Assembly (NCBI RefSeq): GCF_000014265.1
Contig: NC_008312.1
Coordinates: 7,080,001 to 7,112,000 of the forward strand
Source of the DNA: Trichodesmium erythraeum IMS101
GTDB taxonomy: Bacteria; Cyanobacteriota; Cyanobacteriia; Cyanobacteriales; Microcoleaceae
DNA: 32,000 nt
Direction: 5' to 3'
Below, piece after piece: positions 21,772-32,000 of this stretch. A model generated the notes under the pieces. It made no database searches and had not been told where the DNA came from. It worked only from the letters and a program-made list of their open reading frames with translations. The position numbers were made by a program, and so were the translations under genes. Each line of letters starts with the position of its first letter. The stretch's first letter is position 1.

Positions 21772-21868
21772 ATCTTAATGTTGAAATAAATAAGTTTGAT
21801 TGTTCTTTCTAGACTACCTTAAATTGAGGCTTAAATATTTGAAATCAAAAGTCAAAAGTTAAAAGCTA

Positions 21869-22599
21869 ATGTTGGAAGGAAGACTAAAAAAACGAATGTC
21901 ATAAACCCAGGAATTCTGATTTACCTAAAGATTTACCTTCTGAGTCTACAGCCTTTTGCCATTACAAACAGTGGGGTTATCAAGGAATTATAGAGAAGAT
22001 TCCAGACCTTTTGCATGGCCAAGTATCCCAATAGGTAAAAAAAACCAAATGGGCAACTCTTATGATCGTCGCTCCAGAGGCAGTGAAAAATACTTGTAAT
22101 GCTAGTGTAGACTCTAAAGGTTTTTGTTTTTACGAGGCCACTAACAGAATTAAGAGACATAAGGCGATGGATGGTCTCGGTTTTCCCTTTTTTGCCCATT
22201 GTACAAAAGGATCCGTTTCTGATGAAGGACGGGCTATTGAAATGTTATAAGACAACATTGATTACTTTAAATCTAAATCAGTTAACATTGCTAAAGTTAC
22301 TATGGCGAGTTGACAATGGATACCACCCCGAAAAGGTAATAGAAAAGAAAATTTATCCGGCATATATTTGACCAAAATTCGGTTTTAACTATTCCTATTA
22401 CCATCAAAGTTGGAGAAAGAAAATTTGGGAAAAACAGGTTAAGTTTGCGTTAAAGTTAGATGGGCCAATAAATGAAGCAACTCCTGGATGGAAAGATGTT
22501 GAAATAACCAAAAACTTTGAAAGGACTCTTAATAAAGCTACAACCAAGATTAATCTGTGTTTGATCCGACTGATGCTTAAGAGGTTGGGGACCCCATAG
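21869..22599 (+). pseudogene. IS5-family (DDE) transposase relic with internal deletion, stops and frameshifts
   Basis: The pieces are MLEGRLKKRMS*; RNSDLPKDLPSESTAFCHYKQWGYQGIIEKIPDLLHGQVSQ*VKKTKWATLMIVAPEAVKNTCNASVDSKGFCFYEATNRIKRHKAMDGLGFPFFAHCTKGSVSDEGRAIEML*; and, in other frames, SNSWMERC* and FERTLNKATTKINLCLIRLMLKRLGTP*, with stop 22597-22599. Confidence 0.75.
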
Positions 22600-22602
22600 A
22601 TA

Positions 22603-22720
22603 CCTGTAGGGGTTCTATATATAGTAGTCCTAAATAGGTTGCGACCAATCAAAAGTAAATAAAACTGTTAAAACTCTTACCTACTCTCTGTTCCCTTTTC
22701 CCTGTTCCTTAAAAAGCAGT
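22603..22720 (+). repeat. ~118-bp repeat module, copy 1 (immediately after the IS5 relic)
   Basis: CTGTAGGGGTTCTATATATAGTAGTCCTAAATAGGTTGCGACCAATCAAAAGTAAATAAAACTGTTAAAACTCTTACCTACTCTCTGTTCCCTTTTCCCTGTTCCTTAAAAAGCAGT. It ends in heptamer-like CTGTTCC repeats. Confidence 0.7.
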
Positions 22721-22855
22721 ATGATTTTTGCTACGAACACTAATCTAGAAAATTTCAAAAAAATAATCGGGACAGGGCAAAAAAATTACTCTTAAGAAAA
22801 AACAAAGAAGAAATAACTTGTATACAATGCCTGGTAAATTAGGAAGTGATTTTTA

Positions 22856-23027
22856 AAACGTATGTAGGGTATGTAAAAGTCCTAGATAAGTTGCGAAAAA
22901 TCAAAAAGTAAACGTATGTAGGGTATGTAAAAGTCCTAGATAAGTTGCGAAAAATCAAAAAGTAAATAAAACTGTTAAAACTCTTACCTATTTTCTATCC
23001 CCTGTTCCCTGTTCCCTAAAAAGCAGT
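22856..23027 (+). repeat. repeat module, copy 2, with an exact 54-bp internal tandem duplication
   Basis: Units 22856-22909 and 22910-22963 are identical (AAACGTATGTAGGGTATGTAAAAGTCCTAGATAAGTTGCGAAAAATCAAAAAGT). They are followed by AAATAAAACTGTTAAAACTCTTACCTATTTTCTATCCCCTGTTCCCTGTTCCCTAAAAAGCAGT, which is collinear with copy 1. Confidence 0.8.
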
Positions 23028-23137
23028 CGTCCAAAATTGGATTATTACATACCAAACTATTGCTTCTCTACTCTATGAAAAATACCAAGTAGTTGAATAA
23101 GGAACTAACTAACAGATCTTTTTATTCTTTCTGACAA

Positions 23138-23908
23138 ATGACAATTAACACAGTCAAAGAACTTAACTTTTCGACAACTTATATACAGGCGAAGTACGTG
23201 AAAAATGTGGAAAACTATCACATTCATAACCGAACTATCGTCATCAACCCCGAAGAGACAGATGCTTACCTTGAAGAAACTGATGCTTTCTTCAAGAGAA
23301 AAGTTAAAGGCATTGAAAAACATAAAAGCATTATTCCAGCTTTCTCGTCGACTATTCTCAATGATATAGTCGTTGAAAGAGCAAAATCTCTACTTTTGCT
23401 TGAAGTAATAAAGACGAGAAACATTGCTAAGATTATTTTTGAAGAAGGGTGGGCTTTATTGGGCAATTCCCCTGATTCTGACTTTCCTAAAGATGTACCC
23501 CTTTGGAAATCTCCCCAATATACAGCAGGTAGGATATCAGTAGATCCATTCTTTTTGACAAGGCAATCACCACATCCAACTACTCAAGAAGATTTTACTC
23601 TTAAAGTAAACCTATGGTATGCTCCTTCCCATACTGATTGTCTTATTCATGATGAACATGACTTTTTGGAAATTCATACACAAATCTTTGGACAGGGACG
23701 GATGCAAAAGTTCAAAGATCACAGTTTTGATAGTCTCTATGAAGATCTGCTGATGACTGAGGGATACACTCAAATTGTTGCCTTTTGTCAAATCAATGCG
23801 CAAGGAGAATATATTTATCCCTGGCATCAGTATTATTCAGAGACTGATTGCATCTGGATGGCGATCGAATATCATCCTGTGGCTAGAGAATTGTCCAGTC
23901 CAAACTAA
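23138..23908 (+). CDS. hypothetical protein with a C-terminal cupin-like motif
   Basis: 256 aa. CLIHDEHDFLEIHTQIFGQGRMQKF fits the cupin motif 1 style (H-x-x-H...E...G). YPWHQYYSETDCIWMAIEYH is a possible motif 2. It lies 138 nt upstream of the GH31 gene on the same strand. I cannot assign a family from sequence alone. Confidence 0.5.
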   Translation: MTINTVKELNFSTTYIQAKYVKNVENYHIHNRTIVINPEETDAYLEETDAFFKRKVKGIEKHKSIIPAFSSTILNDIVVERAKSLLLLEVIKTRNIAKIIFEEGWALLGNSPDSDFPKDVPLWKSPQYTAGRISVDPFFLTRQSPHPTTQEDFTLKVNLWYAPSHTDCLIHDEHDFLEIHTQIFGQGRMQKFKDHSFDSLYEDLLMTEGYTQIVAFCQINAQGEYIYPWHQYYSETDCIWMAIEYHPVARELSSPN

Positions 23909-24046
23909 CCTTAAGAAGAATATAACTTACGCAGTAACACTAAAATTATATAGTGTACTTTGAGTTATGACTTTTGTTAACGCAAAACTCTATCAAGTTA
24001 AGTCAGATTTGCAATTTCAGTTGTCAAAAATTCAAGGAGTAAAACA

Positions 24047-27000
24047 ATGCCGAGTGAAATTTTTAAAAGTGATCGCCTCTATAAATTTATCAAAGTCGAA
24101 GAATACTTCGATCACTACCAAGAATGGGATAAACTGGGACCTGCAAAAAATCCTGTGTTCGACGGGAAGTACACTTTAAGCCTTACCTTTGATAAGGCCG
24201 GCGGAGGTGAGTGCTCAATGTTGCTTGAGATCACTCAGAACGATGTCTTACGGATGCGCTTTAACCCCAACAAAAAATTAGCAGGGGATTATGCAAGGGG
24301 CACTCGCGTGGATAATGATGAAACAGATGAAGAGATCAAAAGGAATAATCAACGTACTGTAACTTACAGACAAGTTAAGGATATTAAGTTAGGAGATCAG
24401 GTTATATTGACGGCAAAAAGCAATTATAACCAGGTTGGTCGTAATACACCCTTCAATATGGAAGTAGTGATCACTTTAAATCCATTTGGTATCAAAGTAT
24501 TCAACAAGTCCGAATCGAATTCAGAGTATGCCAATATTCCTGTCTGGGAAACCGCAAACACTTCAATTTACTATACCGCTAATGGCACAGATGATTATGC
24601 CATCATTCAGTCGGTCAAGAAGTCGGCCGATGCCAAATATATTGGTTTTGGGGAACAGGGGGGAACTAAACTCAGCAAAAATATGGATCAGTTGAATTAT
24701 TTCAACTTTGATAATATGCGCTATCGACAGGTCTATAATCGTGGACCTTTAGATAACCGCGAACCTCTTTACCACTCTGAGCCTTTCTTTTATGAGTTCA
24801 ATGGCGTTCCTGGTAGCGACAATGTTAATGCAGTTCTAGTGGATAACCCAAGTCAAGTATTCATGGACATAGGCTATAGTAATTCTGGTCGCTATATGTT
24901 TGGGACTCGCTTTGGTGATCTTGACTATTATGTGTTTTTTGGAGAAGACCCGAAGAATATTTTAGATAGCTATACGGCCGTGATCGGTCGCCCAGAGTTG
25001 AAACCGCGCTATGCTTTGGGATATCACCAAGGTTGCTATGGATACGAAAAGCGGAGTGACTTAGAATGGGTTGTGGCGCGATATCGGGATTGGGGTATAC
25101 CCATTGATGGTCTCGCTGTTGATGTTGACTTACAAGCAAATTATCGGACTTTTACTATCAACATCAATAATTTCTGGGAACCAGATAAAATGTTTGATAA
25201 CTTGCGAAAGCAGGGGATAAAATGCTGTACGAACATTACTCCCGTGATCAGCAGTCAAGATAAGCTTGGCAAGACAGATTATGACTACTCAACCTACGTT
25301 GAGGGAAAGAATAACAACTACTTTGTTGTTGATAAGCGCTACGATCCATATAATCCAATTAGTAAAGAGTATCAGATCTATAATGGGGGTATTGAAGATC
25401 GTTCCAACAAAGATGATAATTCCGATCCCGAAGGGTTTGATAGTAGTGAGCCTTACATTGGCGAAGTATATTACGGCAAGGATGCCAATGGTAAAGAGCT
25501 GGGAAGCCCTGGTCATTATCCTGATTTAGGCCGTCAAGAAGTACGCGAATGGTGGGGCAAGCAATATCAATATCTGTATGAAATGGGACTAGAATTTGTC
25601 TGGCAGGATATGACTACCCCAGCTATCCGTGACTTCCGTGGGGATATGAAAGGTTTCCCCTTCCGTCTGTATGTGACTGACGACTTCTATCCCTCGGATG
25701 TCAAACTAACCCCAGCTCTGAAAGTTTGGAATTTGTATTCATACAATTTGCACAAAGCCACCTACGAAGGACTCAATAACCTGTACAAACTATCCAAAGG
25801 ACTAGAGTGGCGCGAAAACAAGCGCAACTATATCATCGGACGAGGGAGTTTTTCTGGTTCTCACAGATATTCTGGTTTATGGACTGGGGATAACTCTTCC
25901 GAATGGGCTTTTCTTCAGATGAATATCTCTCAGGTTCTGTCTCTAGGCATGAACGCTTTGGCAGTTACCGGGCAAGATATCGGAGGTTTCGAGCAAGAAT
26001 ATGGTAACGACAAACAGCAGTGGGCGAGTCCGGAACTGGTAATTCGCTGGACTGCTGCAGGTGCCTTCTTACCATGGTTCCGTAACCACTATGTCCGTAA
26101 GGGTCGTAAAGAATTCCAAGAACCATTCCAATATATAGAGTGGTTTGAGACATGGAACAAGCCAATTCCCGAGCCCCAGGACTTGTACAGGATGGTGCCA
26201 GAGATTTGTAAGCATTATATTGAATTGCGCTACCGTCTGATGCAGTTATTCTACGACACATTGTTTGAGAACACTCTGGATGGTCTGCCTATCTGTCGTC
26301 CTTTGTTCCTCAACGATCCCCAGGACAAGTCTCTTTACAATGATAAAGACGAATTTTTAAACAACGAATTTTTCGTAGGCAAGGATTTTCTCGTTGCTCC
26401 GGTATTGCTTCCTCAGAGTGAAACCAATGGTGGCAAGCGGGATATCTATTTACCTAAGCCTAGCTACTGGTACAACTTTGTCAACAACGTTATGCCTCTT
26501 AATAATGCTTTGGAAGGGGGAACAACGATACGAGATTTTGATGCTAATATCAATACTCGTGACCAGCACATTAACTTTATTGTACCCATCTACGTTCGCT
26601 CGGCAGCAATTATTCCCACAATTGAGTTGGAACAATATGTGGGAGAAAAGAACGCCAAAGGAGAAAAAAATCCTATTACCCTGAATATCTATCCAGACTA
26701 TCAGAAGGAGAATGGAGGAGAATACCACATGTACTTGGATGATGGGGAGAGCCGTTCTTCTGCCCCGAAATCACAAGTGGACGATCCCAAGGCAAACGAC
26801 GAATATCGCGAGATTTTGATTACTAATAAATACACTGGGGAAAAGACCAGAGAGATTAAAGTTAATCGTGTTCACGATGGATATACGCCTATGGAAGACT
26901 TTTTCTTTGTGGCAATATTGCACGATCCTACTGAACAAAAGGGAGAACACGGCCCTTTGCAGGAGGTGACTATGGAAGGTAAACCGCAACAGATGGTTAG

Positions 27001-27124
27001 TGACAATGGTGCCCTCTGGGGTAGCCCTAACAACGCATGGTACTATAATGCAGACATCAATATCAGTTTTATCAAGGTGTTTGATAATATGCCTAAGACA
27101 ACTATCATGTTAGGTTATGTCTAA
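24047..27124 (+). CDS. glycoside hydrolase family 31 protein, alpha-1,4-glucan-lyase-like variant
   Basis: 1025 aa. The GH31 blocks are GLEFVWQDMTTPA (nucleophile Asp block, with T-T-P where hydrolases have N-E-P), GRGSFSGSHRYSGLWTGDNSSEW, GQDIGGF (acid/base Asp) and FLPWFRNH. Confidence 0.8.
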   Translation: MPSEIFKSDRLYKFIKVEEYFDHYQEWDKLGPAKNPVFDGKYTLSLTFDKAGGGECSMLLEITQNDVLRMRFNPNKKLAGDYARGTRVDNDETDEEIKRNNQRTVTYRQVKDIKLGDQVILTAKSNYNQVGRNTPFNMEVVITLNPFGIKVFNKSESNSEYANIPVWETANTSIYYTANGTDDYAIIQSVKKSADAKYIGFGEQGGTKLSKNMDQLNYFNFDNMRYRQVYNRGPLDNREPLYHSEPFFYEFNGVPGSDNVNAVLVDNPSQVFMDIGYSNSGRYMFGTRFGDLDYYVFFGEDPKNILDSYTAVIGRPELKPRYALGYHQGCYGYEKRSDLEWVVARYRDWGIPIDGLAVDVDLQANYRTFTININNFWEPDKMFDNLRKQGIKCCTNITPVISSQDKLGKTDYDYSTYVEGKNNNYFVVDKRYDPYNPISKEYQIYNGGIEDRSNKDDNSDPEGFDSSEPYIGEVYYGKDANGKELGSPGHYPDLGRQEVREWWGKQYQYLYEMGLEFVWQDMTTPAIRDFRGDMKGFPFRLYVTDDFYPSDVKLTPALKVWNLYSYNLHKATYEGLNNLYKLSKGLEWRENKRNYIIGRGSFSGSHRYSGLWTGDNSSEWAFLQMNISQVLSLGMNALAVTGQDIGGFEQEYGNDKQQWASPELVIRWTAAGAFLPWFRNHYVRKGRKEFQEPFQYIEWFETWNKPIPEPQDLYRMVPEICKHYIELRYRLMQLFYDTLFENTLDGLPICRPLFLNDPQDKSLYNDKDEFLNNEFFVGKDFLVAPVLLPQSETNGGKRDIYLPKPSYWYNFVNNVMPLNNALEGGTTIRDFDANINTRDQHINFIVPIYVRSAAIIPTIELEQYVGEKNAKGEKNPITLNIYPDYQKENGGEYHMYLDDGESRSSAPKSQVDDPKANDEYREILITNKYTGEKTREIKVNRVHDGYTPMEDFFFVAILHDPTEQKGEHGPLQEVTMEGKPQQMVSDNGALWGSPNNAWYYNADINISFIKVFDNMPKTTIMLGYV

Positions 27125-27297
27125 GTTACCGATAAGTTTGACGGAAAATCTTTGAATACCAAGCACTATAGTCTGATTTTGATGGTTAAGTTGTGTAAGT
27201 TCCAATAGGGATTTTTTGACTTTGTGTACTTAAAGTTGTCTATGATCATTACGTTTTGAGCTGGTTAATTTAAATATATAAGTAGTCAACATAGGTT

Positions 27298-27336
27298 GGG
27301 GGTGAGTGTAAACTATCTGCGTTTGCACTCACCCCC
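27298..27336 (+). terminator. strong stem-loop downstream of the GH31 gene
   Basis: GGGGGTGAGTGTAAAC-TATCTGC-GTTTGCACTCACCCCC gives a 16-bp stem with one G-U pair and a 7-nt loop. It is followed by a T-rich tract, TTCTATTATC. Confidence 0.6.
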
Positions 27337-27743
27337 TTCTATTATCAATAAGTTTTATCTACTGCTTGAATTTTTATTCAATTCTATTTACTGCTTCATA
27401 AAACTGATATAATATTAGGTTTGGTAGAATTAGCTTTGGTATAATTAGATTGCTAATTACGACTCAGGAGCCGGGAGTTATAGGAGTTAACAATTCAGTC
27501 AATATTTATACTTAAGGTTTCCCTGAGAAAAGAAAGGCAGAGGGCAGAATGTTTTTTCTTATTTGGCTTCATTTTGGGGCAGAAAGGGGGGCTTTTGGGA
27601 TAAAGGAGGAGCTTAAATTGTTAATGGATGACTTCTGTGAAAGGGTATAAGTCTTATCTATATAATTTGCTTATGACTAAAAAAATTAGGTTGATGGCCC
27701 TCTGCTGTTACTAACAACTAATTACTAATAATTATTGATAATT

Positions 27744-30700
27744 ATGGAGAGAAAATATTTAAGGGAAGCTTTAGTAGTTGGAGTTAACCGTTATCCTATG
27801 TTGAAAAATAAAAAAGTAGGAGATTCGAACCTTAAGGCTGCTGCTAAGGATGCTGAAGCTATTGCTAATATGTTGGAAAAATATGGTAAATTTCGAGTTC
27901 AACGTTTGCCAAAAAAATATGATGAGGAAGGTAAAGAAACTTGTGACCATGAGGGAATAGTTAAGGTTGATGATCTTAAAAAAGCAATTATTAATCTATT
28001 TACACCTCCTGGAAAAAATGAAACTCCTGATGTGGCTTTACTGTTTTTTGCCGGGCATGGTTATGTTAATATAGAAGAAGATATTCGAGAGGGTTTTTTG
28101 GCTACTAGTGATGCTAAGTTTGCGAAAAAGCTCTCGAATAATGAAGATATTTTTGGTGTTCCTTTAAGTTGGTTAAAGGATTTATTGCAAAAGAGTCAGG
28201 TTCAAAAACAAATTGTTTGGTTAGATTGTTGTTTTAGTGGTGAATTATTGAATTTTGACGGGGTAGCTAACCTCAATACTCAAGAAAAAAAGGTCAGTCG
28301 CTGTTTTATTACTGCTTCTCGTTCTTTTCAAACTGCTACAGAAAAAATTGATGGAGAACATGGTTTATTTACTGATAATTTGCTGGAATGTTTAAACCCA
28401 GAAAATTATGTTGATGGTTGGGTAGATAATCATGTTTTGACGGAATCTATTCAAGAAAAGATGTCTCAGACATCTCAAGCACCTATGTGTGATAATTCCG
28501 GGGATACAATTATTCTGACTACTAATAGTCTGAATGAACCTCTGGATGAACGTTGGAAAAATGATCCTCCTTATCGGGGTTTATCTTATTTTCGGCAGCA
28601 GGAGAATGATGGGGTATTTTTTCATGGTAGAACTTCGTTAACTGATAAGTTAATTGAGCTAGTAAAAGATAATAATTTTGTGGCGGTTTTGGGGGCTTCC
28701 GGGAGTGGGAAATCTTCTTTGTTACGGGCGGGTTTGTTATATCAATTGAAGCGGGGGCAGAAAATATCGGGAAGTGATAGATGGTTTTATATTGCTCCTT
28801 TTACTCCGGAGGAGTCTCCTCTGAAAAGTCTGCTGAAAAGTCTGGGGAAAAGTCTGGGGGAAATTAAGATTAAGGGGGAAAAAGTTGAAGGTTTAATTCA
28901 GTTTGTTGATCAAACAGAGGCGGAACAAACAGAGGGGAAAAAGGTCGATTTTTTAACTAAGGAATTAATTGAAGAGAAATTAATTGAGTTTATTGATGTG
29001 GTTGAGGCGGAAAGAGTAATTATGGTGATGGACCAATTTGAAGAGTCTTTTACTCTCTGTAAAACTCACGAAGAACGACTGGATTTTTTTGATTGTTTTT
29101 TGGCTGTTTTGGAAAGGCGAGGTGAGAAGTTTTGTGTGGTGTTGGGAATACGGGCTGATTTTCTGGGCCGCTGTTCTGAATATGGAGGGTTGGCCAATAA
29201 AATTCAGGGACATCAATTATTAGTTACTCCTCTGGACGAGGGTGAAATAGAGGAGGTGATCAAAAAACCGGCGAAATTAGTGGGTATGGATGTTGAGCCC
29301 AACTTGGTTGCCAAAATGAGGGAAGATTTTTTGCGTAACCCTGGTAGTTTACCTCTGCTGGAATATACTTTGGATGCTCTGTGGAGTTTTGCGACTCAAG
29401 GGGAGAATAAAAGTCCATATTTAACTCTGGAAAATTATACAAGTTTGGGTGAAATAGAGGGTGCTTTGACGAAGCGAGCTGATGCGGTTTTTGAGAGTTT
29501 GAATGATGAGGAAAAGTCGGTGGCAAAGAGGATATTTTTAGAGTTGGTTCAGCCTGGGGAAGGGAAAATAAGTCCGGGGAAAATAACGGATACTCGGCGG
29601 CGGGTAATTTTGGAAAAGTTGCCTAATGAACGACATAGTTTAGAGCTTTTGTCTGCAGTTAGTGATAGGTTGGCTGACAAAAATAACAGGTTAATGACTA
29701 AGGATAGGTCGGAGGCGGGAATATTATTGGATATTGTTCATGAGGACTTAATTAGAAGTTGGAAAACTTTGAGGAAATGGGTGGAGGAATATCAAGAGGC
29801 TTTGCCGGTGGAAAGAAAAATTGAGGCTGATGCGGCTGACTGGGAAAAAGAGGGGAAAAGTGAGAATTTGTTGTTACGAGCTGGTCGGTTAACTAAGGCG
29901 GAAGAATATCTGGAAAATTATGGTGAAATGGCTTTATTGGATGGGTTGGCTTATGAGTTTATTGAGGCGAGTCGGGAGTTGAAAATTCGTGAGGAAGAAA
30001 AAGAGAAGGAGCGGCAAAGAAAAGAGAAGGAGCGGCAAAGAAAAGTAGAGGAACAAGCAGCAAGAATATTAGGAATGCTTTCTGACTCAATGATCAGACA
30101 AAAGCTATCTTTACTTGATAAAGGTGTATTACTGAGCGTGGAGTCAATGAAGCAATACTTTGATATCAAAAAACGTTATGGAAAAGCTGACTCGGGCCTA
30201 CTTGTTGAACTGGATCAAACTCTACGGAATGGAGTAAGTCAACTACCCAAGCATCTCTATACTCTCAAACACCAGTCCGATGTATATGCAGTAGCCTTTA
30301 GCCCCGACGGCAAAACCATTGCAACTGCAAGTTTAGACAAAACCGCCCGCCTCTGGGATACTGAGAATGGCAATGTATTAGCTACTCTCAACCACCAGTC
30401 CTCGGTAAATGCAGTAGCCTTTAGCCCCGACGGCAAAACCATTGCAACTGCAAGTTATGACAAAACCGCCCGCCTCTGGGATACTGAGAATGGCAAAGAA
30501 TTAGCTACTCTCAACCACCAGGACTGGGTAAATGCAGTAGCCTTTAGCCCCGACGGCAAAACCATTGCTACTGCAAGTTATGACAAAACCGCCCGCCTCT
30601 GGGATACTGAGAATGGCAAAGAATTAGCTACTCTCAACCACCAGTCCTCGGTAATAGCAGTAGCCTTTAGCCCCGACGGCAAAACCATTGCTACTGCAAG

Positions 30701-32000
30701 TTCTGACAAAACCGCCCGCCTCTGGGATACTGAGAATGGCAATGTATTAGCTACTCTCAACCACCAGGACTGGGTAATAGCAGTAGCCTTTAGCCCCGAC
30801 GGCAAAACCATTGCAACTGCAAGTTCTGACAAAACCGCCCGCCTCTGGGATACTGAGAATGGCAAAGTATTAGCTACTCTCAACCACCAGTCCTCGGTAA
30901 ATGCAGTAGCCTTTAGCCCCGACGGCAAAACCATTGCAACTGCAAGTTCTGACAAAACCGCCCGCCTCTGGGATACTGAGAATGGCAAAGTATTAGCTAC
31001 TCTCAACCACCAGTCCTCGGTAAGAGCAGTAGCCTTTAGCCCGGACGGCAAAACCATTGCAACTGCAAGTTATGACAAAACCGCCCGCCTCTGGGATACT
31101 GAGAATGGCAATGTATTAGCTACTCTACTCCACCAGGACTTGGTAATAGCAGTAGCCTTTAGCCCCGACGGCAAAACCATTGCTACTGCTAGCTGGGACA
31201 AAACCGCCCGCCTCTGGGATACTGAGAATGGCAAAGTATTAGCTACTCTCAACCACCAGTCCTCGGTAAGAGCAGTAGCCTTTAGCCCGGACGGCAAAAC
31301 CATTGCAACTGCAAGTTCTGACAAAACCGCCCGCCTCTGGGATACTGAGAATGGCAAAGTATTAGCTACTCTCAACCACCAGTCCTCGGTAAATGCAGTA
31401 GCCTTTAGCCCCGACGGCAAAACCATTGCAACTGCAAGTTCTGACAAAACCGCCCGCCTCTGGGATACTGAGAATGGCAAAGTATTAGCTACTCTCAACC
31501 ACCAGTCCTCGGTAAGAGCAGTAGCCTTTAGCCCGGACGGCAAAACCATTGCAACTGCAAGTTCTGACAAAACCGCCCGCCTCTGGGATACTGAGAATGG
31601 CAAAGTATTAGCTACTCTCAACCACCAGTCCAGGGTATTTGCAGTAGCCTTTAGCCCCGACGGCAAAACCATTGCTACTGCAAGTTCTGACAAAACCGCC
31701 CGCCTCTGGGATACTGAGAATGGCAATGTATTAGCTACTCTCAACCACCAGTTCTGGGTAAATGCAGTAGCCTTTAGCCCCGACGGCAAAACCATTGCAA
31801 CTGCAAGTTCTGACAAAACCGCCCGCCTCTGGGATACTGAGAATGGCAAAGTATTAGCTACTCTCAACCACCAGTCCAGGGTATTTGCAGTAGCCTTTAG
31901 CCCCGACGGCAAAACCATTGCTACTGCAAGTTCTGACAAAACCGCCCGCCTCTGGGATACTGAGAATGGCAAAGAATTAGCTACTCTCAACCACCAGTCC
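27744..32000 (+). CDS. caspase-like (peptidase C14) - STAND P-loop NTPase - WD40 repeat protein, 3' end beyond the window
   Basis: The frame is open from ATG 27744 (in-frame TAA at 27729) to the window end, more than 1418 codons with no stop in my manual translation. The caspase dyad is FFAGHGY (His codon 28056-28058) and WLDCCFSG (Cys codons 28227-28232). The STAND entry motif is DPPYRGLSYF...VFFHGR, with Walker A GASGSGKSS and Walker B VIMVMDQFEE. A charged linker (EKERQRK x2) precedes at least 14 WD40 units from 30255. It is not in the ORF track because it has no stop in the window. Confidence 0.9.
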   Translation, partial: MERKYLREALVVGVNRYPMLKNKKVGDSNLKAAAKDAEAIANMLEKYGKFRVQRLPKKYDEEGKETCDHEGIVKVDDLKKAIINLFTPPGKNETPDVALLFFAGHGYVNIEEDIREGFLATSDAKFAKKLSNNEDIFGVPLSWLKDLLQKSQVQKQIVWLDCCFSGELLNFDGVANLNTQEKKVSRCFITASRSFQTATEKIDGEHGLFTDNLLECLNPENYVDGWVDNHVLTESIQEKMSQTSQAPMCDNSGDTIILTTNSLNEPLDERWKNDPPYRGLSYFRQQENDGVFFHGRTSLTDKLIELVKDNNFVAVLGASGSGKSSLLRAGLLYQLKRGQKISGSDRWFYIAPFTPEESPLKSLLKSLGKSLGEIKIKGEKVEGLIQFVDQTEAEQTEGKKVDFLTKELIEEKLIEFIDVVEAERVIMVMDQFEESFTLCKTHEERLDFFDCFLAVLERRGEKFCVVLGIRADFLGRCSEYGGLANKIQGHQLLVTPLDEGEIEEVIKKPAKLVGMDVEPNLVAKMREDFLRNPGSLPLLEYTLDALWSFATQGENKSPYLTLENYTSLGEIEGALTKRADAVFESLNDEEKSVAKRIFLELVQPGEGKISPGKITDTRRRVILEKLPNERHSLELLSAVSDRLADKNNRLMTKDRSEAGILLDIVHEDLIRSWKTLRKWVEEYQEALPVERKIEADAADWEKEGKSENLLLRAGRLTKAEEYLENYGEMALLDGLAYEFIEASRELKIREEEKEKERQRKEKERQRKVEEQAARILGMLSDSMIRQKLSLLDKGVLLSVESMKQYFDIKKRYGKADSGLLVELDQTLRNGVSQLPKHLYTLKHQSDVYAVAFSPDGKTIATASLDKTARLWDTENGNVLATLNHQSSVNAVAFSPDGKTIATASYDKTARLWDTENGKELATLNHQDWVNAVAFSPDGKTIATASYDKTARLWDTENGKELATLNHQSSVIAVAFSPDGKTIATASSDKTARLWDTENGNVLATLNHQDWVIAVAFSPDGKTIATASSDKTARLWDTENGKVLATLNHQSSVNAVAFSPDGKTIATASSDKTARLWDTENGKVLATLNHQSSVRAVAFSPDGKTIATASYDKTARLWDTENGNVLATLLHQDLVIAVAFSPDGKTIATASWDKTARLWDTENGKVLATLNHQSSVRAVAFSPDGKTIATASSDKTARLWDTENGKVLATLNHQSSVNAVAFSPDGKTIATASSDKTARLWDTENGKVLATLNHQSSVRAVAFSPDGKTIATASSDKTARLWDTENGKVLATLNHQSRVFAVAFSPDGKTIATASSDKTARLWDTENGNVLATLNHQFWVNAVAFSPDGKTIATASSDKTARLWDTENGKVLATLNHQSRVFAVAFSPDGKTIATASSDKTARLWDTENGKELATLNHQS
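30255..32000 (+). repeat. 123-bp (41-codon) tandem array, 14 full units plus a partial one, encoding WD40 blades
   Basis: The exact period of 123 was verified from GCAGTAGCC at 30288, 30411 and 30534. The unit is LATLNHQxxVxAVAFSPDGKTIATASxDKTARLWDTENGxx. The DNA is nearly identical between units. Confidence 0.95.

Follow-up and report, generated by a model that had tools for sequence, protein, structure and literature searches.

A predicted caspase-like protease, STAND NTPase, and WD40 repeat protein of Trichodesmium erythraeum IMS101 with diversified repeat positions

RESULTS AND DISCUSSION

Tery_4625 and its surroundings

The window analyzed here, a 32,000-nucleotide stretch of the T. erythraeum IMS101 genome (NC_008312.1), contains a forward-strand frame spanning 27744 to 32000, where the window ends. 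Frame inspection gave 1,419 codons without a stop, in agreement with the uninterrupted frame of more than 4.2 kb reported in the preliminary description. The frame opens with an ATG at 27744 (a TTG at 27735 is an alternative start), and the nearest in-frame stop on its 5' side lies at 27729. All of the encoded residues (1419/1419) are identical to those of ABG53597.1/WP_011613914.1, which identifies the frame as codons 1 to 1419 of the 1,510 of the annotated gene Tery_4625, cut at the window end. The gene is thus neither missed nor new; its absence from the open reading frame track, noted earlier, arises because the tool omits frames running off the window end. Following the protein past 32000 to its true end added 91 residues, for a total of 1,510 amino acids with 15 WD40 units and a tail of about 60 residues.

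A terminator-like 16-bp hairpin at 27298 to 27336 (forward strand), 3' of the upstream GH31 gene, was found once against 0.2 sites expected from shuffled sequences and likely marks a transcription-unit boundary. The weak sigma-70-like promoter candidate at 27637 to 27666 (forward strand) is not significant alone, since shuffles predict 3.0 sites and just one was found.

Tery_4625 occupies a syntenic chromosomal site. Its neighbors were housekeeping genes in the three loci compared, with neither a defense island around the gene nor a conserved partner gene across these loci. Given the lack of a conserved partner, the caspase-STAND-WD40 gene may act as a single-gene system. PADLOC returned no Avs or bNACHT match for Tery_4625, and these surroundings did not bear out the role as a suicide or defense switch that had been proposed earlier. 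They would fit a nonlethal regulatory protease or scaffold, in which the STAND-WD40 part builds a signaling complex and the protease cuts particular substrates as cells acclimate or differentiate. The several caspase-family paralogues found per genome and the housekeeping roles considered possible for cyanobacterial orthocaspases, such as those in Nodularia (PMC5756287), point in the same direction. However, we consider a regulatory role of this kind quite unlikely. The all-in-one layout of effector, NOD, and repeats is typical of death and immunity switches (PMC13581612, PMC7159879), and the fast-diversifying contact residues and concerted evolution of the repeats, described below, are hallmarks of conflict recognition rather than of conserved partners.

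Caspase-like protease domain

Residues 9 to 250 (27768 to 28493, forward strand) matched Peptidase_C14 (PF00656; E = 8e-13; score, 49 bits; cutoff, 21.4), a caspase-like domain of the orthocaspase/metacaspase type. The N-terminal His/Cys dyad was found where it had been placed before, with AGHG at residues 103 to 106 and DCCFSG at residues 161 to 166. The putative catalytic His105, within FFAGHG, is encoded at 28056 to 28058 and Cys163, the second Cys of LDCCFSG, at 28230 to 28232 (both forward strand). In the alignment of 112 sequences from which all conservation figures given here derive, the His was present in 112 sequences and the Cys in 111. A family profile aligned with fungal metacaspase-1 (7qp0, at E = 4e-4, and also 4f6o), pairing FaGHG with YSGHG and DCCysG with DSCHSG, and thereby set both dyad residues in the catalytic motifs of that enzyme.

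In the same profile alignment, Asp36 was opposite the Asp of CIND and Asp161 opposite the Asp at Cys-2 of metacaspase-1. These two acidic residues, of which Asp161 (Cys-2) was present in 112/112 sequences and Asp36 in at least 95%, are predicted to lie in the S1 pocket and would thereby favor Arg or Lys at the cleavage site in place of Asp; the prediction draws on these two residues, and the profile match that aligns them is weak (E = 4e-4). Orthocaspases refuse Asp at P1 (PMC5756287). A single-sequence search gave no PDB match, and a Foldseek search with the AlphaFold model matched the MALT1 paracaspase with a TM score of up to 0.69 on the target. MALT1, the fungal and protozoan metacaspases, and the Microcystis orthocaspase MaOC1 (clan CD, C14) have in common with the Tery_4625 domain the caspase-hemoglobinase fold, a His/Cys dyad in the same motifs, and acidic S1-pocket positions implying a basic P1, although sequence similarity is very low and detectable only at the profile level. 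Regulation is predicted to differ, with the fused STAND module taking the place of the Ca2+, prodomain, or Ig/death domains of that group.

STAND NTPase and helical linker

Residues 276 to 707 (28569 to 29864, forward strand) matched the STAND NTPase family nSTAND1 over nearly its whole length (PF20703; E = 3e-108, 363 bits, profile positions 1 to 378 of 379), covering the predicted nucleotide-binding domain (NBD), helical domain, and winged helix. The entry motif DPPYRGLSYF...FFHGR, the P-loop, and the Walker B motif noted earlier are all present and belong to this match, the first at its N-terminal side (residues 274 to 283 and 292 to 296). The Walker A P-loop GASGSGKSS with Lys323 (residues 317 to 325; 28692 to 28718, forward strand) is invariant at G317, S319, G320, G322, K323, S324, and S325, and Walker B, MVMDQFEE with Asp430, Glu433, and Glu434 (residues 427 to 434; 29022 to 29045, forward strand), is invariant at D430, Q431, E433, and E434. 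A GSLPLL motif at residues 534 to 539 (29343 to 29360, forward strand; P533, L536, P537, and L538 invariant, G534, S535, and L539 in at least 90%) is similar to GLPL/GxP of NB-ARC-type STANDs and may have the corresponding role. By similar motif resemblance, His666 of VHED (29739 to 29741, forward strand; H666 and E667 invariant) is a candidate MHD-like winged-helix histidine. No Pfam match to NB-ARC was reported for Tery_4625 at E values up to 0.01.

The NTPase is joined to the WD40 region by a predicted helical arm and coiled-coil linker at residues 708 to 839 (29865 to 30260, forward strand), modeled as a long helix at 734 to 785 with further helices to 832. An in-frame 21-nt tandem duplication was detected by TRF inside this linker at 29999 to 30045. 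The AlphaFold model of residues 1 to 835 had a pLDDT of 81.6, and its Foldseek matches included Orc1/Cdc6, CED-4, NRC3, Avs4, Avs5, and Dark; sequence-only searches with Tery_4625 gave no solved-structure relative. Peptidase_C14, nSTAND1, and WD40 models all passed their curated cutoffs. With motifs invariant or nearly so and a model matching apoptotic and immune STAND proteins as well as MALT1, the three-module architecture with NLR/Apaf-1-like logic put forward in the preliminary description stands, and Tery_4625 is, as predicted from sequence, a single polypeptide of caspase-like protease, short linker, nSTAND1 STAND NTPase, helical arm, and 15 WD40 repeats.

WD40 array and its diversification

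The WD40 array (30261 to 32000, forward strand) has 14 complete units in the window, starting at 30261 + 123i, and a 15th from 31983, consistent with the earlier count of at least 14 blades. Each unit is exactly 41 amino acids (123 nt), and the units have about 94% DNA identity to one another. The repeat count also fits the two seven-bladed propellers proposed earlier, which are likely on that basis, but the arrangement was not confirmed by the predicted structure of the WD40 region (pLDDT of 42).

Variation among the units is concentrated in codons 6, 7, 9, and 25, with less at codons 3, 38, and 39. For codons 7, 9, and 25, set beforehand as the canonical top-face positions R1-2, R1, and D-1, 8 of 9 nucleotides were variable, compared to 12 of 114 in the rest of the unit (Fisher p ~1e-6). 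The dN/dS was ~5 (5.05) at codons 6, 7, 9, and 25 and 0.28 in the remaining codons. Among 51 distinct WD40 units there were 45 hotspot combinations, and entropy peaked at unit positions 7, 9, 25, and 6 and, less strongly, at 27. Between same-genome paralogues the WD40 scaffold was 100% identical while the remaining parts were 79% identical, and between orthologues 98% identical outside the hotspots, the hotspot residues were completely turned over. The hotspot pattern is common in the family, occurring in 40 of 72 long members. As read from these sequences, the scaffold is homogenized between paralogues and the putative contact positions are hypervariable, matching the fungal HNWD NLR genes.

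A near-identical array could also be an assembly artifact or a decaying pseudogene region with no working sensor. Nearly all close relatives in drafts and metagenome-assembled genomes (MAGs) are partial, with contigs that break off at or close to the array, and just 8 units are present in the MAG_R01 orthologue, compared to 15 in Tery_4625, possibly through assembly collapse. We regard this explanation as exceedingly improbable, as 14 units follow one another in perfect frame, free of indels and stops, the scaffold codons are under purifying selection (dN/dS of 0.28), an identical repeat unit was found in independent assemblies, and the protein is complete in the IMS101 record (1,510 residues, with a conserved C-terminal tail) on a 7.75-Mb contig.

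[quoted passage not shown] Homogenized paralogue scaffolds are a further likeness, as is the difference in repeat number between close strains (15 versus 8, with the assembly caveat given above). The two differ in kingdom, effector (HET or other versus caspase), and NTPase clade (NACHT versus nSTAND1); allorecognition by HNWD has been shown genetically, whereas Tery_4625 was compared at the level of sequence. The parallel would suit an allorecognition or kin-discrimination receptor whose strain-specific arrays sense polymorphic proteins of other Trichodesmium genotypes in mixed colonies, causing incompatible cells to die. We consider this very unlikely. Fungal incompatibility requires cytoplasmic mixing after hyphal fusion, and a comparable fusion of cells is not known from Trichodesmium trichomes. 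Neither a signal peptide nor a transmembrane segment is present in the Tery_4625 model, and a non-self ligand would therefore have to be intracellular; moreover, pathogen sensing predicts the same evolutionary regime equally.

Relation to known families and systems

More than 3,000 relatives of Tery_4625 were found at E values of <1e-10; in the best 120 of these, every named one is cyanobacterial and most have all three modules. Metacaspase-WD40 fusions were already catalogued, as had been stated earlier: caspase-WD40(15) genes of IMS101 have been listed as cyanobacterial metacaspases since 2010, two cbMC-beta genes being given as "WD40(15), WD-40 repeat" (Jiang et al. 2010; PMC2853523). These entries match Tery_4625 in annotation and repeat count, the two features compared. 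A metacaspase-NACHT-WD40 class was described by Asplund-Samuelsson et al. in 2012 (PMC3501461), and a 2026 Nature paper reported bacterial STANDs with Apaf-1-like WD40 sensors in which an N-terminal caspase replaces the CARD (PMC13581612). Tery_4625 is a member of this cyanobacterial metacaspase/orthocaspase-STAND-WD40 group (cbMC-beta; "caspase family proteins" of Pfam nSTAND1), shows no essential difference from it, and is thus of a cyanobacterial design already known. However, earlier Trichodesmium metacaspase catalogues gave WD40 repeats alone for these IMS101 genes, and the NTPase, now matched by Pfam at 363 bits, was undetected. The limited set of literature searched held nothing contradicting the earlier statement that the trigger and substrates of such proteins are undefined.

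With Apaf-1, CED-4, and Dark (AP-ATPase clade of STAND), Tery_4625 has in common an effector-side domain, NBD, helical domain, winged helix, helical arm, and WD40 array; its model matched CED-4 (Foldseek E = 7e-8) and Dark. In contrast to that group, which recruits its protease through a CARD, the protease is fused directly, the NTPase is nSTAND1, and the predicted specificity is for Arg/Lys rather than Asp; the Tery_4625 repeats are nearly identical to one another apart from hypervariable hotspots, whereas Apaf-1 blades have diverged. Avs1 to Avs5 and bNACHT proteins have the same tripartite order of effector, STAND NTPase, and repeat sensor, and a similar activation logic is predicted. Avs4 (8dgf, E = 5e-6) and Avs5 were among the structural matches, but Tery_4625 fits no PADLOC model for them and has no defense island. 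Most prokaryotic STAND sensors consist of TPR-like repeats (PMC13581612), in contrast to the WD40 sensor here.

Proposed mechanism

We think that Tery_4625 is probably an apoptosome-like NLR, in which a ligand on the WD40 face leads to NTPase oligomerization and to activity of the clustered Arg/Lys-specific protease. In the resting state, the WD40 array and winged helix together would keep the NTPase closed, ADP bound, and monomeric. The ligand, a protein, would dock on the propellers at their hypervariable top faces; the way in which the repeats have diversified points to a variable protein of non-self origin, for instance one from a cyanophage. Its binding would release the lock, allowing ADP/ATP exchange and oligomerization of the NTPase ring, which would cluster the N-terminal protease domains and activate them by induced proximity. 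The active protease would then cut cellular targets after Arg or Lys, and the affected cell in the filament may stop growing or die. The same logic has been put forward independently for the caspase-STAND-WD40 architecture (PMC13581612, PMC7159879).

A different trigger would apply if Tery_4625 executed stress-induced programmed cell death, with the WD40 region binding an endogenous damage signal (released when iron runs short, under oxidative stress, or as a bloom declines) as Apaf-1 binds cytochrome c, and the protease bringing about autocatalytic death. Apaf-1, which also has 15 WD40 repeats, does have an endogenous ligand, and the syntenic locus in a housekeeping neighborhood would suit such a function. 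If TeMC9 is Tery_4625, a tentative assignment, the published metacaspase expression data that we traced, which concern TeMC9, apply to it; they deal with iron starvation and the collapse of blooms rather than with phage, and TeMC9 and TeMC4 were upregulated after bloom collapse (PMC5756287). However, transcript induction is a correlation only, and the published "caspase activity" was measured with Asp substrates, which orthocaspases do not cleave (PMC5756287). An invariant endogenous ligand would also leave unexplained the dN/dS at the contact codons, the many hotspot combinations, and the full hotspot turnover between orthologues, and we consider a stress-death function rather unlikely.

For the apoptosome-like NLR that we favor, the value added by this analysis lies in the Tery_4625 repeats, whose predicted contact positions are diversified like those of fungal immune receptors.

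Identity of the open reading frame

The ATG at position 27744 (forward strand) opens a frame that runs through 1,419 codons without a stop up to the final base of the window, and the closest in-frame stop 5' of this ATG lies at 27729. This bears out the single open frame claimed in the preliminary description. The frame is identical at 1,419 of 1,419 residues to ABG53597.1/WP_011613914.1 (Tery_4625, 1,510 aa, annotated as 'WD-40 repeat'). The gene is thus annotated already, and both Pfam and recent STAND surveys recognize its architecture. The additional claim that the ORF track misses the gene proved to be a tool artifact: frames running past the window end are left off the listing of the ORF tool, and the omission is therefore no biological statement. 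Beyond position 32000, the protein continues for 91 more residues, which finish the 15th WD40 unit and add a C-terminal tail of about 60 aa that is kept in the paralogs. The name Tery_4625 was not found in the literature searched, in which papers on TeMC9, which may be the same gene, are without locus tags.

The closest protein clusters to the window frame are from Trichodesmium, and the same genome carries a paralog, Tery_2471 ('peptidase C14', 1,481 aa), with 79% identity over the caspase-STAND part. Species-representative genomes gave no match in a scan for exact 60-mers, and a protein-guided scan of them returned diverged or truncated relatives only. The G+C content is 43.5% for positions 27744 to 32000 versus 36.1% for the whole window.

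The motifs named from the sequence were all in place: AGHG at aa 103 to 106, DCCFSG at aa 161 to 166, DPPYRGLSYF at aa 274 to 283, FFHGR at aa 292 to 296, GASGSGKSS at aa 317 to 325, and MVMDQFEE at aa 427 to 434. The codons of His105 and Cys163 were correctly located at 28056 to 28058 and 28230 to 28232, respectively, and the at least 14 WD40 blades claimed agree with the 14 Pfam WD40 stretches in the window. The preliminary observation is confirmed, and none of the outcomes that it had named as counting against it was found; its interpretation is partly supported.

Caspase-like protease domain

Profile HMM searches detected both Peptidase_C14 and nSTAND1 above their curated cutoffs. Peptidase_C14 (Pfam PF00656) was matched at aa 9 to 250 (E=8e-13, 49 bits, cutoff of 21.4). 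Assignment to the EACC1-associated caspase subfamily was rejected, as the NCBIfam model caspase_w_EACC1 scored 72 bits, under its cutoff of 140. A single-sequence search of PDB sequences for a solved relative of the caspase part gave noise only. A family profile of the domain, built from 17 sequences, matched the fungal metacaspase-1 structures 7qp0 (E=4e-4) and 4f6o. The profile alignment pairs FaGHG with YSGHG and LDCCysG with FDSCHSG of metacaspase-1. In Yca1, the His and Cys of these motifs are the catalytic pair. The dyad described earlier does therefore align with the metacaspase-1 His/Cys motifs, and the alignment identifies the catalytic residues as His105 and the second cysteine, Cys163. 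Conservation was examined in 112 aligned sequences, comprising the query and 111 relatives, the most distant of them at about 40% identity. His105 was present in 112 of 112 and Cys163 in 111 of 112, and Asp161 and Cys162 were invariant or nearly so.

In the same alignment, the metacaspase residue opposite Asp36 is the Asp of CIND, and the one opposite Asp161 is the Asp at position -2 relative to the catalytic Cys. The residues matching Asp36 and Asp161 are the acids of the S1 pocket in both metacaspases and MALT1. From these two acidic S1 positions, we infer a specificity for Arg or Lys, with cleavage predicted after either residue at P1. Asp at P1 is not accepted by orthocaspases (PMC5756287), which fits the predicted specificity.

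An AlphaFold2 model of aa 1 to 835, built with 46 sequences, had a mean pLDDT of 81.6, and both the caspase and the STAND folds found structural matches. For the caspase-hemoglobinase fold, Foldseek (PDB) matched MALT1 paracaspase with E values of 1e-7 to 1e-6 and a TM score of up to 0.69 on the target.

nSTAND1 NTPase module

The second domain, nSTAND1 (Pfam PF20703), was matched at aa 276 to 707 over profile positions 1 to 378 of 379 (E=3e-108, 363 bits) and is followed by the WD40 repeats. Across the 112 aligned sequences, Walker A (GASGSGKSS) is invariant but for A318 (108/112) and S321 (110/112). D430, Q431, E433, and E434 of Walker B (DQFEE) are invariant, with F432 present in 107 of 112. 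Arg470, His666-Glu667, and the PGSLPLL motif show full or almost full conservation. These analyses establish the identity of the domains, the integrity and conservation of the catalytic and NTPase residues, and the predicted fold of aa 1 to 835.

The model shows a nucleotide-binding domain, helical domain, and winged helix for which Foldseek (PDB) matched Orc1/Cdc6 (1e-9) and CED-4 (7e-8). Other matches of the model were the plant NLR NRC3, Avs4, Avs5, and the Drosophila apoptosome protein Dark. By sequence, NB-ARC was absent from the Pfam matches for aa 276 to 839 at E values up to 0.01, which were nSTAND1, AAA_16, nSTAND3, AAA_22, and ABC_tran. No phmmer match to Apaf-1 or CED-4 was obtained in the PDB, and the single-sequence search with the STAND part returned noise. 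An Apaf-1-type AP-ATPase ortholog was rejected on two grounds, the lack of NB-ARC by sequence and the N terminus, which in Tery_4625 is a caspase domain whereas Apaf-1 carries a CARD adaptor. The likeness of the NTPase to such proteins is confined to the fold.

Two short tandem repeats were also observed in this part of the gene. The first, a 12-nt repeat at 28823 to 28863 (3.4 copies, 89% match), encodes KSLLKSLGKSLGE and falls within an NTPase-domain insert of low conservation, at about aa 360 to 420. The second is a 21-nt in-frame duplication at 29999 to 30045 (2.2 copies, 100% match), owing to which the coiled-coil linker carries two copies of KEKERQR; the Trichodesmium MAG_R01 ortholog and Tery_2471 carry one.

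Diversification of the WD40 repeats within Tery_4625

Tandem Repeats Finder detected an array with a period of 123 nt at 30260 to 32000 (14.2 copies, 94% matches, zero indels), in which each of 14 units is exactly 41 codons. The mean pairwise nucleotide identity of the units was 94.3%, and the protein-level shift-identity was 0.95. Under the thresholds for high identity in use (at least 0.7 for HR [Hu 2017] and at least 85% [Dyrka 2014]), the array belongs to the highly internally conserved (HIC/HR) repeats. Only 20 of the 123 nucleotide sites per unit vary. Five of these are isolated and synonymous, and the remaining 15 cluster in codons 3, 6, 7, 9, 25, 38, and 39.

The top-face hotspots of WD40 proteins are R1 and R1-2 of the (V/L/I)-R1-R2-(V/L/I) bulge, together with D-1, which precedes the tetrad Asp (Wu et al., PMC3419727). 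V8-N9-A10-V11 and D26 of the unit place them at codons 9, 7, and 25, and this definition was set before the test. Of the 9 hotspot nucleotides, 8 vary, and of the other 114, 12 do (Fisher p=1e-6). The dN/dS ratio (Nei-Gojobori) was 5.05 at codons 6, 7, 9, and 25, compared to 0.28 over the other 37 codons. The sensor face is subject to diversifying selection.

The full protein has 15 WD40 units, the same number as Apaf-1, in which they form a 7-blade and an 8-blade propeller. The single-sequence AlphaFold2 model of the 15 units had a pLDDT of 42, too low for the arrangement of the blades to be read. Two antisense ORFs are present in the array, at 30578 to 31057 (159 aa) and 31070 to 31990 (306 aa) on the reverse strand; they are most likely by-products of a stop-free periodic repeat rather than genes.

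Homogenization of repeats between loci

We compared the repeats at the DNA level between genomes, using loci from metagenome-assembled genomes (MAGs), and at the protein level only within the IMS101 genome. Between Tery_4625 and Tery_2471, the 33 scaffold positions were 100% identical in all internal units, and identity elsewhere in the proteins was 72% in the caspase domain, 82% in the STAND domain, and 72% in the C-terminal tail. Only two combinations of hotspot residues were common to both proteins. For the paralogous locus in another Trichodesmium genome (L003), the N-terminal DNA was 76.7% identical to that of Tery_4625 (70.5% at 193 fourfold sites), and the scaffold consensus was 99% identical (18/19 fourfold sites). 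The repeats are homogenized between paralogous loci. In the MAG_R01 ortholog (L006), the N-terminal DNA was 98.8% identical, and no hotspot combination was shared with Tery_4625, a comparison subject to the collapse of arrays that short-read assembly can produce. The repeat number was 15 in IMS101 versus 8 in this ortholog, where the short-read MAG may have collapsed repeats.

The edge units are kept by position between the paralogs and the internal units are shuffled. The first unit (30261 to 30383) opens with TLKHQSDVY in Tery_4625 as well as in Tery_2471; NTARLHWAT closes the last unit, which lies past the window end. Conserved edges with a shuffled interior are expected if unequal crossing-over homogenizes only the interior of the array.

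When 51 distinct internal units were pooled, 45 hotspot combinations were found among them, and entropy peaked at positions 7, 9, 25, and 6; position 27 showed a secondary maximum. The shift-identity was at least 0.7 in 40 of the 72 sufficiently long family members, and distant members with a homogenized unit of their own vary in the same register. This homogenized and hypervariable regime thus also occurs outside Trichodesmium. The invariant scaffold DNA had no match in a metagenome scan, and a search of a large protein collection with seven WD40 units yielded so many generic WD40 proteins (35 to 55% identity) that it was uninformative on other architectures with the same cassette.

Podospora HNWD genes, which are fungal NLR genes, exchange repeats within and between paralogs, with codons 7, 9, 25, and 27 under positive selection (PMC1805685; PMC4986451), and the Tery_4625 family matches this regime. 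A diversity-generating retroelement (DGR) is another conceivable source of such variation, and the DGR target reported in the IMS101 genome is a different caspase-domain protein, Tery_2077 (PMC4143802). Repeat shuffling and point substitutions account for the pattern in Tery_4625 without a DGR. IMS101 therefore seemingly has two routes to hypervariable caspase-linked proteins, the DGR of Tery_2077 and the repeat shuffling of Tery_4625. Hu et al. (2017, PMC5587647) described, in general terms, highly repetitive WD40 proteins that are diverse at hotspot sites; with this precedent, the pattern in Tery_4625 is a specific instance and not a new principle.

Three relatives among the closest protein matches (P0117, P0118, and P0092) keep the caspase-nSTAND1 core, with pentapeptide or TPR repeats replacing WD40. 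From this, it seems that the effector-switch chassis stays constant and the sensor module is exchanged.

Genomic neighborhood

Upstream of Tery_4625 lies a gene for a GH31 glycosidase (24047 to 27124), preceded by an ORF of 256 aa on the forward strand (23138 to 23908) that is located just upstream of GH31 and does not adjoin the protease gene. The other upstream genes encode porphobilinogen deaminase (hemC), a metallo-beta-lactamase-fold protein, DUF3122, CobW (cobW), and GTP cyclohydrolase I (folE). A hairpin at 27298 to 27336, between GH31 and Tery_4625, looks like an intrinsic terminator; it is a 16-bp, GC-rich stem followed by a T-rich tail about 175 nt past the GH31 stop codon.

The MAG_R01 locus is syntenic, with the same upstream genes as in IMS101. 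There, hemC directly adjoins the Tery_4625 ortholog, and a convergent TPR gene and rimM lie downstream. The distance from hemC is about 6 kb in IMS101 (21772 to 27743), holding the 256-aa ORF and GH31, and 186 bp in MAG_R01 (L006, 9815 to 10000). Either one lineage gained this segment or the other lost it. In the Scytonema relative (L007), the neighbors are unrelated.

The earlier proposal of a ligand-triggered suicide or defense switch held in its architecture and motifs; the defense-system profiles and the genomic context did not bear it out. No PADLOC model for Avs or bNACHT matched, and the PADLOC output consisted of the generic 'caspase' model (5e-12), a WD40-driven HEAT-ARM_XIII match, and weak P-loop matches only. 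A location in a defense island or mobile element was rejected, given the housekeeping-type neighbors (GH31, hemC, DUF3122, cobW, folE, and others). Nor was a gasdermin or other partner gene present nearby in the window, L006, or L007. The 256-aa ORF showed no gasdermin or defense signal and no PADLOC or Pfam match at E values up to 1; it has the His-rich motifs HDEHDFLEIH and PWHQYY. We conclude that Tery_4625 stands alone, as a single-gene system that is stable in the chromosome and has no visible partner.

Relation to known systems and possible function

Proteins of this type have been catalogued before. IMS101 metacaspases are listed as 'WD40(15), WD-40 repeat' by Jiang et al. (2010, PMC2853523), in whose list the NTPase of these genes went undetected, and 'Metacaspase-NACHT-WD40' is given as widely distributed in the account of Asplund-Samuelsson et al. 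(2012, PMC3501461). Surveys of NLR-like systems of multicellular bacteria include such proteins, and it is stated there that cyanobacteria hold the closest Apaf-1 homologs (Kaur, Aravind, and colleagues, PMC7159879; 2026 Nature survey, PMC13581612). In the passages of these catalogues and surveys that concern caspase-STAND-WD40 proteins, we found no experimental tests of them. Among bacterial analogs of the apoptosome, this family is one of the clearest, and its protease is built in.

If Apaf-1 (PMC4691890) and bacterial Avs proteins are taken as models, the protein at rest would be closed and ADP bound. Docking of a protein ligand on the top faces of the propellers would open it, and nucleotide exchange and ring formation would then bring the N-terminal protease domains together. 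Their proximity would activate these domains, which would cut after Arg or Lys.

Of the analyses made, that of repeat diversification offers the most useful new angle, as it pinpoints candidate ligand-contact residues at positions 6, 7, 9, and 25 of each blade. It provides a concrete lead, namely, that the ligand face is diversifying and evolves in concert between paralogs, and this argues for a variable biotic ligand. A constant endogenous ligand is the alternative, and the substitution pattern favors a variable non-self ligand over it. The weight accordingly moves from 'abiotic stress death' towards an immune-like reading. Trichodesmium death machinery is usually framed by 'metacaspase' transcripts and Asp-directed activity assays, and a protease with these S1-pocket residues would probably be missed by the latter.

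Somewhat doubtful, in our estimate, is the broader reading in which the caspase-nSTAND1-WD40 paralogs of Trichodesmium and other filamentous cyanobacteria correspond, among bacteria, to the fungal HNWD/NLR repertoire. They would be a small multigene family in which repeat shuffling and gene conversion, both inside single paralogs and from one paralog to another, continually reassort the WD40 ligand faces. If this counterpart exists, each strain would have its own set of specificities with which to recognize variable non-self proteins of cyanophages or conspecifics, and the diversification of NLR sensors by repeat shuffling would be older than, or independent of, eukaryotes. Biotic recognition through these receptors, and not abiotic stress alone, would then be at least part of what triggers the 'programmed cell death' of Trichodesmium, and perhaps the bloom collapse that bears on ocean carbon and nitrogen export.
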